Shown: positions 23,663 through 33,180, counted from the stretch's first letter. The stretch: 64,000 bases of DNA from Blastocatellia bacterium (GCA_049273855.1 JBASRN010000295.1:3931-67930); one strand, 5' to 3'. Numbers and translations are program-made. The notes: a model not told the origin generated them from the sequence alone.

Positions 23663-25081
23663 GTGGCTTTGAAGAGGTTCGTTCTCCCCATCCTTATTGC
23701 TTTGGCCGGGCTGATTGCTCTTGGCTCCAGCAGCGCAAACTCCAACAGAAAAGAAGTGACGTTTAGCAAGGACGTCGCGCCGATCTTCTTCAACAACTGC
23801 GCAGAGTGCCACCGCCCCGGCGAAGCTGCGCCGATGTCGCTGCTGTCTTATAGAGACGCGCGGCCGTGGGCTCGCTCGATCAAGGAAAAAGTCGCGACCA
23901 AACAGATGCCGCCCTGGCATGCGGACCCGCACTACGGGCAGTTCTCGAACGACCGGCGTTTGAGCCAGGCTCAGATCGACACCGTCGCGGCGTGGGTGGA
24001 TCAAGGCGCAAAGGAAGGCAACCCGAAGGATTTGCCGCCCGCGCCGAAGTTCACCGAAGGTTGGGTCATTGGCAAGCCGGACATCGTTTTGCAGATGCCT
24101 GAAGAGTTCACGCTTGAGGCGTCAGGGCCCGACGAGTACCAGTACTTCGAGGTCCCAACCAACTTCAAAGAAGACGTCTACGTTCAGATGGCCGAAGCGC
24201 GGCCAGGCAATCGCAAGATCGTGCATCACATCATCGCTTTTGTTTCGCCTCCTTCAAAGGACGGCAAGCAGATGCAGTTCACCAAGGAAGAAATCGAGAA
24301 GTACCAGCGGGAAGCTGAGAAGAAATCCATGTTCCGCAAAGAGGGTTTCTTGATGCGGATGAAGCCGGGCATGCCGGTCCACGACGATGGCTGCTCGCTA
24401 CCCAACGGCGGAAACGGCGAGTCGTTGGACACTAAAGAAGAATCGCGCGGGTTCGATCTGCTGGTCGGTTTCGCTCCGGGGATGCCTCCGGGAGTGATGG
24501 AGCCCGGAACGGTTAAGCGAATTCCGGCAGGCTCGAAGATCCTCTTGCAGATGCATTATTCGAAGGCGACGGGCAAAGTCGAGAAAGACCGCTCATCGAT
24601 CGGACTGGTGATTGCCAAACAACCGGCCGACAAACACGTCTACACGCACGGCATCGCTAACGTCTATTTCCAGATTCCACCCGGCGCTGAAAATCACAAA
24701 GTGACTTCGTGCTGGACCACCAGGGAGGACATTCACCTGCAGACGTTGATGCCGCATATGCACCTGCGGGGCAAGGCGATGAGGTTTGAAGCTTTCTATC
24801 CGGACGGGCGTTCAGAAGTTCTGATCGACGTGCCCGACTACAGCTTTTCGTGGCAGACGGTGTACTACTTGAAGAAGCCCTTAGCGCTTCCGAAGGGTAC
24901 GAAGATCGTGGTAACCGCCATATTCGACAACTCGTCCAGGAACAAATACAACCCGGACCCGAAACAGGCGGTTCGTTTCGGCGATCCAACCTATGACGAT
25001 ATGATGATCGGCTGGATCAGCTACACGGTTGACAAACAGCGTTTGCGAGACGAAACGGCGCTTAATCGCGGCGGCAAGTAG
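23663..25081 (+). CDS. array paralog 1: secreted cytochrome c (CxxCH) + copper type II (PHM/DBH-like) monooxygenase-like fusion
   Basis: GTG start with AGGAGG RBS. Signal peptide. NCAECHRPGE heme motif, MPPW. HHIIAF (Cu2 monooxygenase signature 1-like). H-x(6)-H-M-H-L-R-G (signature 2-like). DDMMIGW. Confidence 0.8.
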   Translation: MALKRFVLPILIALAGLIALGSSSANSNRKEVTFSKDVAPIFFNNCAECHRPGEAAPMSLLSYRDARPWARSIKEKVATKQMPPWHADPHYGQFSNDRRLSQAQIDTVAAWVDQGAKEGNPKDLPPAPKFTEGWVIGKPDIVLQMPEEFTLEASGPDEYQYFEVPTNFKEDVYVQMAEARPGNRKIVHHIIAFVSPPSKDGKQMQFTKEEIEKYQREAEKKSMFRKEGFLMRMKPGMPVHDDGCSLPNGGNGESLDTKEESRGFDLLVGFAPGMPPGVMEPGTVKRIPAGSKILLQMHYSKATGKVEKDRSSIGLVIAKQPADKHVYTHGIANVYFQIPPGAENHKVTSCWTTREDIHLQTLMPHMHLRGKAMRFEAFYPDGRSEVLIDVPDYSFSWQTVYYLKKPLALPKGTKIVVTAIFDNSSRNKYNPDPKQAVRFGDPTYDDMMIGWISYTVDKQRLRDETALNRGGK

Positions 25082-25138
25082 CCAGGTCGTCGAGGCTGTA
25101 CCCAGCAATACGAAATGGAACTTCGGGAGGGCTTGAAG

Positions 25139-26581
25139 ATGAAAAGATGGTTATCAGTTTCCATCGCGCTGGCGGTTGGGATCGTGGCGGCAAGCATGGT
25201 CTTGTCGGCTTCGATCGACGCAAGCTCTGGCAGCAGGAAGGTGGTGACGTTCAATAAGGACGTCGCGCCGATCTTCTATAAGAACTGCGCGGAGTGTCAT
25301 CGGGCTAACGACATTGCTCCGATGCCGCTGATGACCTACAAAGACTCCCGCCCTTGGGCGCGTTCGATCAAAGAGAAGATCCTGACTCGCCAGATGCCGC
25401 CCTGGAGTCCCGATCCGAAGTACGGCGAGTTTATAAACGATCATCGCCTCGCCCAGAAAGACATCGAAACGATAGCCGCGTGGGTGGACCAGGGCGCAAA
25501 GGAAGGCGACGCGAAGGACCTGGCCCCGACGCCGGAGTTCACTTCGACGGACGGCTGGCGGCTTGGCAAACCCGACGCGGTCTTTGACATCGGCAAGGAG
25601 TTCACCGTCAAAGCGGGAATGCCCGACACGATCGAGAACTTCATCGTTCCGACCAACTTCAAAGAAGACAAGTGGGTGACGGCGGCCGAGATCCTTCCCG
25701 GCAACAGAAAAGTCGTGCATCACGTGATCGCGTTTATCCAGACGCCGGAGATGATCGAAAAGTTCAAGAAGGGCGAAGGCCGTGCACGCGCGTTGATGCA
25801 GAGCGATGTCTTTTATCGCGACGGCTCGCTGTTGAAGGTGAAAGCCGATGCGCCGGTGATCAATGACGGATGCGGCGCGCCAAACGGAGGCTCGGCTTTC
25901 AAGCGCCCCAGCGCGAGCGAGGGCGGTGACGCGTTCGGGTTGTTCCTGGCAGGGTATGCTCCGGGCAAAGGCATTGATGTTTTCCCGGCAGGCACGGCCA
26001 AGAAGGTTCCCGTGGGCTCGATGCTGGTGTTCCAGATGCACTACTCCAGCTACAGCGGCAAGTTCGAGGGCGTGCAGGGCGATCGCACGAGGCTCGGGTT
26101 GCACTTTGCGAGCAAGCCGCCGGAGCGTGGCTTGAACACCGTTGGCATTCAGAATCATTACTTCAAGCTACCGGCTGGTGAAGGCAATCAAGAAGTGACG
26201 GCTTGCTACACCTTCGACGCGACGGTTCACCTCACAAGCTACATGCCGCACATGCATCTGCGCGGCAAGGATATGAAGTACGAGGTGGTCTATCCCGACG
26301 GCCGGCGGGAGACGCTGTTGTGGGTGCCGAAGTTCAGCTTCAACTGGCAGACGATGTACTACTTGAAGAAACCGGTAACGCTTCCCAGGGGCACAAAGCT
26401 GATCGTCACAGCGCACTTCGATAACTCGGACAAGAACAAGTACAACCCCGACGCCACAAAGGCGATTCGGTGGGGCGATCCGACCTACGAAGAGATGATG
26501 ATCGGATGGATGGAGTACTACGTCGATGGTCCGGTAAAGAGTGAGAGACCTGACGCAGCCGCTTCGGGGTCGCGAAGGTAG
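25139..26581 (+). CDS. array paralog 2: cytochrome c + PHM-like monooxygenase fusion
   Basis: Start at MKRWLSV after a GGGAGGG RBS. NCAECHRAND. HHVIAF. VHLTSYMPHMHLRGK. EEMMIGW. Confidence 0.8.
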   Translation: MKRWLSVSIALAVGIVAASMVLSASIDASSGSRKVVTFNKDVAPIFYKNCAECHRANDIAPMPLMTYKDSRPWARSIKEKILTRQMPPWSPDPKYGEFINDHRLAQKDIETIAAWVDQGAKEGDAKDLAPTPEFTSTDGWRLGKPDAVFDIGKEFTVKAGMPDTIENFIVPTNFKEDKWVTAAEILPGNRKVVHHVIAFIQTPEMIEKFKKGEGRARALMQSDVFYRDGSLLKVKADAPVINDGCGAPNGGSAFKRPSASEGGDAFGLFLAGYAPGKGIDVFPAGTAKKVPVGSMLVFQMHYSSYSGKFEGVQGDRTRLGLHFASKPPERGLNTVGIQNHYFKLPAGEGNQEVTACYTFDATVHLTSYMPHMHLRGKDMKYEVVYPDGRRETLLWVPKFSFNWQTMYYLKKPVTLPRGTKLIVTAHFDNSDKNKYNPDATKAIRWGDPTYEEMMIGWMEYYVDGPVKSERPDAAASGSRR

Positions 26582-31832: not shown

Positions 31833-31833
31833 G

Positions 31834-33180
31834 ATGAGTATGAAGAGGAAGAGCGACACGGCGACGGGGCGACGGAGCGACGCGGCGATCGGACGATCGC
31901 CCTCTGCGTCTCTGCGTTTGGGCGTCTCGGCGTTGATTCTGACCACCTTGTTCTTTGTTGACTCGTGGTTCGGTCGGGCTTTCGCGCACGAGCCGATCAC
32001 CACGAAAGTCAGATTCAACAAAGAAGTGGTGCGCGTCTTGCAGCGGAACTGTTTGGGTTGTCATCACACTGGTGGCTTGGCGATGTCGCTTGCGGCCTAC
32101 GACGAGGCTCGGCCGTGGGCAAAGGCAATCAAGGAAGAGCTGCTTGAGAAGCGTATGCCGCCGTGGCACGCGGTGCGGGGCTACGGCGAGTTTCGCAACG
32201 CTCCTACGATCACGCAACGCGAGATCGATTTGATCGTGAACTGGGTCGAAGGCGGCGCCCCAAAGGGCGACGACAAGGACTTACCGGATGGTCCGCTCTA
32301 TTCCGGTGAGGGGCAGTTAGGCGCCCCTGACCTGATCCTAAAGCCTCAGTCAGAGGCTCAAGTAGCAGCGGACGCCGACGAGCATCGCGGCTTATCGCTG
32401 GCGACTGATCTGAAAGAAGACCGCTGGCTAACGGCGATTGACCTTCGCCCGGGCAACGGCTCGGTAGTTCATTGTGCCACGTTCAATATTGAAGCCGCCG
32501 CAGTGGGCGATCCCGCGATGCCCGCGCGAATGAGTTCCGGCGTCGAGCGTTCGATGTCTCCTCCCGGGGCCGCACGAACACCAGCCTCCAACGCCATCGT
32601 TGCCACGTGGGCGCCGGGACAGCGAACAGTGGCGTTGCCTGACGGCATCGCGCAGCTTCTACCCGCAGGCTCGCGCATCGGTGTTACGATTCATTATCGC
32701 GGCGCCGGCGAAGCGGTGCAAGACCTGAGCGAAGTCAGTTTGTATTTCGCCGAGACCGCGCCTCGCAAACAGATTAGGCAGATCGCCATCACGGACCCCG
32801 ACGCGATCATTCCCGCAGCCACGGAACTTCAGCGCTTCAAGAAATCAGTCACGATTCAGGATGACGCAGAAGGAATCGCGATTCGTCCGCGAGTGCATCC
32901 GGTTGTGGCTTCGGTTCAGGCTACGGCGTTCCGGCCGGATGGCACGCAAGAGATTTTGATATGGACGCGCGGCTACCAGTTTGACTGGCAGCAGACTTAC
33001 TACTTCAAGCAGCCAATCGCGCTGCCAAAGGGAACGCGTGTTGAAGTGATAGCCTACTTCGACAACTCCGACAACAACCCAAAGAACCCGAACGACCCGG
33101 CCAAGCCGATGCGCTGGTCCGATCTAACGCAGGAACCGCTCTTTGCTCTTCTCGTAACAAGAACGCGTAACGCCGACTAG
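31834..33180 (+). CDS. array paralog 6 (most divergent): cytochrome c + PHM-like monooxygenase fusion
   Basis: NCLGCHHTGG heme motif. MPPWHAVRGYGEF. Conserved C-terminal YFDNSDNNPKNP block and FDWQ motif. Cu-site residues less conserved than in paralogs 1-5. Confidence 0.65.
   Translation: MSMKRKSDTATGRRSDAAIGRSPSASLRLGVSALILTTLFFVDSWFGRAFAHEPITTKVRFNKEVVRVLQRNCLGCHHTGGLAMSLAAYDEARPWAKAIKEELLEKRMPPWHAVRGYGEFRNAPTITQREIDLIVNWVEGGAPKGDDKDLPDGPLYSGEGQLGAPDLILKPQSEAQVAADADEHRGLSLATDLKEDRWLTAIDLRPGNGSVVHCATFNIEAAAVGDPAMPARMSSGVERSMSPPGAARTPASNAIVATWAPGQRTVALPDGIAQLLPAGSRIGVTIHYRGAGEAVQDLSEVSLYFAETAPRKQIRQIAITDPDAIIPAATELQRFKKSVTIQDDAEGIAIRPRVHPVVASVQATAFRPDGTQEILIWTRGYQFDWQQTYYFKQPIALPKGTRVEVIAYFDNSDNNPKNPNDPAKPMRWSDLTQEPLFALLVTRTRNAD

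Follow-up and report, generated by a model that had tools for sequence, protein, structure and literature searches.

We report here an array of six genes located at positions 23663–33180 of a 64,000-nucleotide (nt) stretch of DNA from a Blastocatellia bacterium (GCA_049273855.1 JBASRN010000295.1:3931-67930), the whole of which is referred to as the window. The genes encode proteins in which a monoheme cytochrome c domain precedes a domain homologous to the copper monooxygenases PHM and DBH. An earlier reading of this DNA (the original prediction) had described them as six tandem genes for secreted heme c and copper monooxygenase fusions with one and the same layout. All six open reading frames (ORFs) were found on the + strand exactly at the predicted positions, and a signal-like hydrophobic N-terminal segment was present in the 6/6 copies. 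The products align with one another over their full length, with identities of 46–65% among copies 1–5 and of 31–34% between copy 6 and the others, but the tandem run is broken by 709 nt between copies 3 and 4. The layout of signal peptide, heme domain and copper signatures attributed to all six proteins holds for copies 1–5 but not for copy 6, which has no copper motifs. For comparison, 80 related loci were collected from metagenome-assembled genomes of Acidobacteriota, mostly Blastocatellia.

Copy 1 (23663–25081, + strand, 472 amino acids) begins with a signal peptide, continues with a monoheme cytochrome c domain and ends in a copper core of the PHM/DBH kind, which contains a Cys-rich-free-standing insert of about 60 amino acids after the HH motif. 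Its motifs are CAECH46, MPPW82, HHIIAF188, QMHY296, PHMHLRG364 and DDMMIG445, it scored 25.9 bits with PF03712 (cutoff 23) and 24.0 bits with PF00034 (cutoff 21.3), and its orthologs in the related loci L001 and L002 are 89–90% identical to it. The same layout, insert and complete motif set were found in copy 2 (25115–26581, + strand, 488 amino acids), which scored 32.5 bits with PF03712 and has orthologs of 89–91% identity in the same two loci. Copy 3 (26657–28105, + strand, 482 amino acids) also follows copy 1, with a variant insert (DNACEQRAPGG), 26.6 bits with PF03712 and orthologs of 84–87% identity. In copy 4 (28815–30464, + strand, 549 amino acids; PF03712, 30.9 bits) the heme domain and the copper core with insert are followed by a C-terminal DUF3471 domain (PF11954; amino acids 455–535, nt 30177–30419; 38 bits versus a cutoff of 29.3). 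Extra C-terminal domains had been announced for the array in general, but this is the sole instance and the other five copies have none. The domain is present in 7/8 positional orthologs of copy 4, and PF03712 exceeded its gathering threshold in 8/8. Copy 5 (30523–31755, + strand, 410 amino acids) is a compact form without the insert, and copy 6 (31834–33180, + strand, 448 amino acids; 446 amino acids from position 31840 in the NCBI annotation) is a copper-less paralog that is 100% identical to a database protein (P0271).

From copy 1 to copy 6 the intergenic gaps measure 33, 75, 709, 58 and 78 nt. Because the 709-nt gap (28106–28814) holds a strong terminator-like hairpin (28721–28753, + strand; 14-bp stem with 12 G-C pairs and a T-rich tail), identified by a consensus scan only, the array probably forms two transcription units, one with copies 1–3 and the other with copies 4–6. 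The gap also contains a small ORF (28400–28678, + strand, 92 amino acids) that matched only positions 25–116 of Lumazine_bd_2 (PF12893; 78 bits), being truncated at its N-terminus, and that is probably not part of the system. In the positional orthologs of L001 and L002 the space between copies 3 and 4 is 75–219 nt and this ORF is absent.

Each of the six copies contains one CxxCH and one MPPW motif. The heme residues of copy 5 are C50/C53/H54 (nt 30670–30684) and M86. In an alignment of 42 sequences, whose members are 37–56% identical to copy 5, C50, C53 and H54 were conserved in at least 90% and M86 was invariant. Cytochrome c models score weakly on the full-length proteins, but the isolated heme domains of copies 1 and 5 gave 26.3–27.3 bits with PF00034 (cutoff 21.3) and 27.6–30.2 bits with PF13442 (cutoff 27); that of copy 6, at 25.2 bits, fell just under the cutoff. 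Weak resemblances to Haem_bd, PccH and the C-terminal heme domain of the hydrazine synthase alpha subunit were also seen. The domain had originally been assigned to PSCyt1, an identity that is ruled out given that PF07635 was never matched, neither by the full proteins at an expectation value (E) of up to 1 nor by the isolated heme domains at E up to 10; the models that were matched instead are those named above. Its residues and Pfam matches place the heme domain in the class I type of monoheme cytochromes c, and its His/Met pair is the signature of a six-coordinate electron-transfer heme. The attachment of c-type heme takes place in the periplasm and requires export, so that the six proteins are presumably periplasmic.

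Copies 1–5 share the motifs HH[IV]I[AV]F, Q[MV]HY, PHMH[LV]RG and [ED][ED]MM[IV]G. The last of these had been compared with the methionine region of the CuM site, and it is indeed kept in copies 1–5 but replaced by LF in copy 6; the leading His of the proposed H-x(6)-H-M-H pattern was found in copies 1, 2 and 5 but not in the other copies. PF03712 was above its gathering threshold (23 bits) in copies 1–4, with 25.9–32.5 bits, while copy 5 gave 15.3 bits and copy 6 no match. An AlphaFold2 model was obtained for copy 5 with a predicted local distance difference test (pLDDT) of 81.5 and a predicted template modelling (pTM) score of 0.75. When it was compared with the PDB by Foldseek, the best 31 matches were all PHM or DBH structures (E from 4e-13 to 6e-11, probability 1.0), with about 280–310 aligned columns and a template modelling score of around 0.6 relative to the target. 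Beyond them, the matches were unrelated beta-sandwich proteins with E about four orders of magnitude worse. The PHM-like double beta-sandwich that had been anticipated is thus found in the copy 5 model, and also in that of copy 6, whose matches are given below.

The same relationship was obtained with sequence profiles. The family profile matched human DBH (4ZEL) with E = 4.6e-5 when built from 23 sequences and E = 2e-7 when built from 42, and its hhalign alignment with a profile of 15 animal DBH/TBH sequences covered 274 columns (96.4% probability, E = 1.1e-9). In this alignment VVHH was paired with LVHHM, Q-x-HY with EVHY, PHMH-x-RG with HTH-x-TG and EEMM with DEMC, so that all six copper ligands of copies 1–5 (HH, H, H-x-H and M) pair with those of DBH. 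The expected correspondence of His and Met residues to the CuH and CuM sites is in this way confirmed for copies 1–5, although it does not extend to copy 6. The adjacent His-His pair and third His of a CuH site are present in copies 1–5, as are the H-x-H and distal Met of a CuM site. In copy 5, the CuH candidates are H192/H193 (nt 31096–31101) and H239 (nt 31237–31239), and the CuM candidates are H305/H307 (nt 31435–31443) and M387 (nt 31681–31683). H239, H305, H307 and M387 were invariant in the 42-sequence alignment, and H192 and H193 were conserved in at least 90%. A complete ligand set was found in 165 of the 210 family ORFs from 81 sources (the window and the 80 loci). The fold, the domain architecture, the mapping of the ligands, their conservation and the synteny of the array are shown by the analysis. 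It must be noted that a PDB search with a single sequence gave weak cytochrome matches only, and that no NCBIfam model covers these proteins.

With respect to known systems, PHM, the catalytic core of PAM (PDB 1PHM and 1OPM), shares the two-domain beta-sandwich and provided the best structural matches (E of about 1e-13 to 1e-11). It also shares the pattern of CuH (HH plus H) and CuM (H-x-H plus M) with comparable spacing, but its identity to the window proteins is about 14–17%, and PDB searches by sequence at E up to 10 retrieved DBH and no PHM. DBH/TBH (4ZEL) is the nearest by sequence profile, with all six ligands aligned, and its Cys-containing loop after HH is the site of the insert in copies 1–4. 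The differences lie around the core. PHM comes from secretory granules, and DBH, which is eukaryotic and driven by ascorbate, has a DOMON domain at its N-terminus and a dimerisation domain at its C-terminus, whereas the window proteins are bacterial, would be periplasmic, and bear a c-type cytochrome domain for covalent heme at their N-terminus. They are homologous to PHM/DBH and unlike the characterised members in being bacterial, predicted to be periplasmic and joined to a cytochrome of the c type. The idea that a heme feeds a mononuclear copper site is shared with cytochrome-fused NirK, with the transfer from the cytochrome of cellobiose dehydrogenase to LPMO and with cytochrome b561 and PHM/DBH. 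Those relays, however, use other copper folds and another chemistry (the cupredoxin of NirK, the histidine brace of LPMO), and their heme is b-type or located in a separate protein, except in fused NirK.

Copy 6 does not fit the description of six equivalent enzymes. It lacks every copper signature (HH is changed to HC, HMH to RVH and MM to LF), which rules out that all six copies are active enzymes. Its fold is nevertheless that of the others. The AlphaFold2 model (pLDDT 73.5, with 85–95 in the beta-sandwich blocks and less than 50 in the N-terminal segment) gave PHM and DBH only as its top 30–31 Foldseek matches (E of about 1e-10). Its heme residues are C73/C76/H77 and M108. In the approximately 33 related loci with the array, the copy 6 type is always the last gene, directly after the compact copy 5 type, and in L020 and L025 the compact and copper-less pair stands alone. 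The ratio of nonsynonymous to synonymous substitution rates (dN/dS) of copy 6 against five orthologs was 0.06–0.18, similar to those of copies 4 and 5 (0.06–0.23 for copies 4–6 overall). The intact ORF, these ratios, the fixed position and the gain of an invariant motif rule out a decaying pseudogene.

The gained motif lies at the predicted signal cleavage site. In the window copy it reads AFA|HEPITTK, with a predicted mature N-terminus at His52 (nt 31987–31989). The pattern AXA|H[ED]P[IV]TT was found in the 29/29 locus copies and in 114/120 database homologs of copy 6, the other 6 being truncated gene calls. With cleavage at the predicted point, mature proteins of this type should begin with His, and residue 2 is always Glu or Asp. 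PH-x-H-x-RG was kept in 0/120 homologs, and in nearly all copper-less copies the Cys of a C-terminal P-L-C motif replaces the second Met of EEMM, with Phe in the window copy. No second invariant His besides that of the heme was found in the copper-less copies. A His at the N-terminus is characteristic of histidine-brace copper sites, among them those of LPMO, CopC and PmoB and the mono-His brace of YcnI. The fold of copy 6 is unlike that of any known brace protein, and we advance a copper site at its N-terminal His purely as a hypothesis. The conserved copy 6 type would be a partner without catalytic activity that most likely docks to the compact enzyme of the copy 5 type, where it would relay electrons, since its heme is kept, or deliver copper, in view of its His at the N-terminus.

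The array is not restricted to the window. About 33 of the 80 loci contain it, with 0–3 long copies, one DUF3471 copy, one compact copy and the copper-less copy, and in terms of gene order its core consists of two genes, the compact copy 5 type and, after it, the copper-less copy 6 type. Positional orthologs in L001, L002 or L005 showed identities of 71–91% for copies 1–5 and of 64% for copy 6, while paralogs do not exceed 65%. Because positional orthologs are closer than paralogs, the six-gene array predates these species and all of its copies have been maintained. Recent tandem duplication is ruled out on the same basis, every copy being closer to its positional ortholog than to any paralog. 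The five complete paralogs represent ancient lineages that have each been conserved on their own, which is consistent with different substrates or roles.

The wider family is large. A word-indexed search with copy 5 gave at least 8,000 candidates, few of which carry source names, these being "cytochrome c", "mono/diheme cytochrome c family protein" and "thiol-disulfide isomerase". In an exhaustive search with the catalytic domain against 1.84 billion representatives clustered at 50% identity, 10,398 relatives were found at E ≤ 1e-3, 6,142 at E ≤ 1e-10 and 1,805 at E ≤ 1e-30. Among the 150 best matches, 50 had the short N-terminal layout of the window proteins (heme, then copper) and 67 had more than 150 residues ahead of the heme; for the 150 most diverse relatives of the catalytic domain, the number with such a stretch before the first heme motif was 64. 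An AhpC/TSA domain occupied that position in 8/10 sampled long relatives, and in six relatives it contained a single conserved Cys within G-T-x-C-P-[VIL]-[GA]-N and no CxxC. These three-domain proteins, named "thiol-disulfide isomerase" or "redoxin domain protein", have a catalytic domain 42–59% identical to that of the window proteins and belong to the same family; the window proteins differ from them in having no AhpC/TSA domain and in forming a tandem array that ends in a copper-less paralog. Other domains were also seen in some relatives (P0121–P0270), including ankyrin, alpha/beta-hydrolase, EF-hand, BlaR1-type M56 and 3-keto-disaccharide hydrolase domains. A separate set of proteins (P0403–P0431), retrieved with a fragment of human DBH, are 283–323 amino acids long, contain both PF01082 and PF03712 and are 47–54% identical to human DBH; they come from metagenome contigs of up to 1.2 Mb and form a lineage distinct from the window family.

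Neighbourhood comparison had been suggested as a source of clues to the substrate. Across the 80 loci and the window it yielded recurrent neighbours but no universal or single conserved partner gene, and no substrate was identified. The most recurrent neighbour is a cluster of Amidohydro_2 proteins with a twin-arginine translocation (Tat) signal, found at no more than 8 kb from family genes in 15/81 sources. Its window member (18923–20197, + strand; PF04909, 99.6 bits) has the twin-arginine signal SRRAMLK and is presumably periplasmic. Such a gene lies upstream of the array on the same strand and within three genes in L001 (where it is adjacent), L002, L005, L009 and L032. In five loci with a single family gene (L053, L063, L067, L076 and L079), that gene is accompanied by the Tat amidohydrolase and by an exported VOC/glyoxalase-fold protein, a calycin-like protein, or both. 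By sequence, the amidohydrolase has a single PDB relative, an uncharacterised protein from Bordetella (3IRS, E = 2e-5), and a functional partnership with the array is possible. A second type of cassette, represented among L038, L051, L054, L058, L061 and L066, contains two family genes and a calycin-like protein. Near these two-gene cassettes we observed a Tat-signal thiamine diphosphate (ThDP) enzyme in L038, L058, L061 and L066, usually with a small cytochrome c, and a pyrroloquinoline quinone (PQQ) dehydrogenase with an N-terminal cytochrome c domain in L054, L058, L061 and L066. Taken together, the cassettes of these more distant members look like a periplasmic oxidative pathway.

Exported peptidases often flank the arrays, with S15 in L009, L010 and L032 and a TldD/PmbA pair in L010. 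In the window, a metalloprotease-like protein (20452–23229, − strand, 925 amino acids), which has an HEFGH zinc motif, matches M6/M12 models weakly and contains TIG and CARDB domains, separates the amidohydrolase from the array, and it is absent from that place in L001. Farther upstream, a dense run of exported peptidases occupies the − strand at 7397–18661. It comprises a tricorn-like S41 peptidase (7397–10702, − strand), an S46 peptidase (11527–13764, − strand) and two M16 genes (15887–17314 and 17339–18661, − strand). A sulfotransferase-like gene (13902–14912) and a cupin resembling Asp/Asn beta-hydroxylases (14891–15703) were found in the same region. Directly downstream of copy 6 there is a fusion of unusual, defence-like architecture (33388–34518), with an N-terminal TIR domain (TIR_2, ThsB_TIR and, weakly, Thoeris type III ThcB4) joined to a sugar-phosphate nucleotidyltransferase domain. 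It is followed by an exported DUF1326 protein (34707–35420, − strand), whose Cys-rich segment CSCPMFCQCYF could bind metal and which is not recurrent in other loci. Neither precursor-like small ORFs nor maturase genes of a ribosomally synthesised and post-translationally modified peptide (RiPP) system were seen, and a system of this type was discarded. As a whole, the neighbours hint either at the breakdown of small aromatic or organic acids in the periplasm or at peptide processing.

In attention to the above, we consider it rather probable that copies 1–5 act in the periplasm as non-coupled binuclear copper monooxygenases akin to PHM and DBH and are fed by their tethered heme, which replaces ascorbate. 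In proposing this we infer export, the occupancy of the heme and copper sites, the direction of electron flow and the monooxygenase chemistry, together with the role given above to copy 6. The heme, held by Cys-x-x-Cys-His and with Met as axial ligand, would take single electrons from the periplasmic cytochrome c pool or from the respiratory chain and would hand them to CuH (H192, H193 and H239 in copy 5). CuH would then reduce CuM (H305, H307 and M387) across the interdomain cleft, as in PHM, and CuM would activate O2 and hydroxylate a C-H bond of a periplasmic substrate. The fused heme would in this way stand in for ascorbate. In the relatives that carry it, the AhpC/TSA domain may clear peroxide arising from uncoupled turnover or give another entry for electrons.

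Several observations weigh against this proposal. Although PF03712 was detected in copies 1–4, two of the three models with which the proteins had been expected to match, PF01082 and PF07635, found none of the copies, and for PF01082, which describes the N-terminal copper domain, the best score was 12.3 bits against a cutoff of 30. The copper monooxygenase signatures that the proteins had been said to match, in their strict PROSITE-style forms (HHM..F.C and H.F....HTH..G), were found in 0/6 copies, with relaxed forms in copies 1–5. The profile of the C-terminal subdomain alone had no PDB match by sequence. In addition, the position that we take to be that of the Arg binding the substrate carboxylate in PHM (R240), two residues before the first CuM His, is occupied here by Met or Leu; since this Arg site is changed, the substrate is probably not a glycine-extended peptide. 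The AhpC/TSA domain of many relatives could indicate peroxide or thiol chemistry, and the clues from the neighbourhood are mixed, with peptidases on one side and the amidohydrolase, VOC protein, PQQ dehydrogenase and ThDP enzymes on the other.

Among the alternatives, the one that survives best, unlikely as we judge it, is that the proteins are oxidases or reductases, which would pass electrons from cytochrome c to O2, H2O2 or a nitrogen oxide at copper, as terminal or detoxifying oxidoreductases of the periplasm, or would send them the other way, from a substrate through copper and heme into the respiratory chain, as in copper nitrite reductases fused to cytochrome c. Cytochrome-fused NirK has the same layout of a heme c tethered to copper, PHM structures with bound nitrite, azide and CO are among the fold matches, so that small anions can bind, and around the window array we saw no conserved operon for the processing of a substrate. 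The copper sites themselves speak for hydroxylation instead, given that the ligand set of PHM/DBH is kept exactly, CuM Met included, and is specific to O2-activating hydroxylases. Moreover, five separately conserved paralogs with variable inserts and a DUF3471 domain fit a diversification towards different organic substrates or partners better than one reaction of a small molecule.

The use of peroxide is less probable still. According to this explanation, the proteins would either be peroxygenases driven by H2O2, a mode of action proposed for LPMOs, or belong to a periplasmic redox system for peroxide or thiols in which the heme is a peroxidase-like or sensing site. The appeal of this explanation lies in the many relatives with an N-terminal, peroxiredoxin-like AhpC/TSA domain and its one conserved Cys in G-T-x-C-P. 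The window proteins, however, have no such domain, the domain may just as well scavenge peroxide from uncoupled turnover or let electrons in by another route, and the heme bears the signature of a six-coordinate His/Met electron carrier rather than of an open peroxidase site. Finally, a non-enzymatic role of the PHM fold in periplasmic copper binding, storage, trafficking or sensing, which copy 6 brings to mind by keeping the fold without copper sites and by an invariant N-terminal His that recalls CopC and YcnI, is very improbable, because two strict three-ligand sites about 100 residues apart together with a redox heme, repeated in thousands of clusters, are hard to explain by storage, and a chaperone role is plausible for copy 6 alone.

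The hydroxylase interpretation can be carried one step further. More tentatively, the family may be a very large, unstudied bacterial branch of PHM/DBH that works without ascorbate, made up of self-sufficient periplasmic C-H hydroxylases whose fused heme would connect CuH straight to the respiratory electron pool. In Acidobacteriota its ancestral pair would have been a compact enzyme and a copper-less heme paralog, in which the invariant His at position 1 would form a new site that delivers copper or relays electrons to the enzyme. PHM and DBH are textbook animal enzymes, and the route of electrons between their two distant copper sites, as well as the re-reduction of CuH, has long been debated. 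If confirmed, a built-in heme donor would offer an entry of electrons that can be tracked spectroscopically, expression in bacteria and thousands of natural variants (more than 10,000 clusters), with the copper-less partner as a ready-made natural control. The partner may also represent a new type of metallochaperone, and its conservation with an N-terminal His is the most unexpected element of the system.

In the literature searched, no paper on a bacterial fusion of cytochrome c with PHM/DBH was found, in agreement with the original prediction that no member of this architecture had been characterised. A comparative-genomics review of metalloproteomes from 2020 places PHM and DBM among the eukaryotic cuproproteins only (PMC7435645). 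The existence of the family is nonetheless implicit in annotation, since domain databases already flag the C-terminal domain.

Acidobacteriota are abundant soil bacteria whose physiology is poorly known. If copies 1–5 act as proposed, they would extend the metabolism of this phylum by a new class of periplasmic oxygenases.

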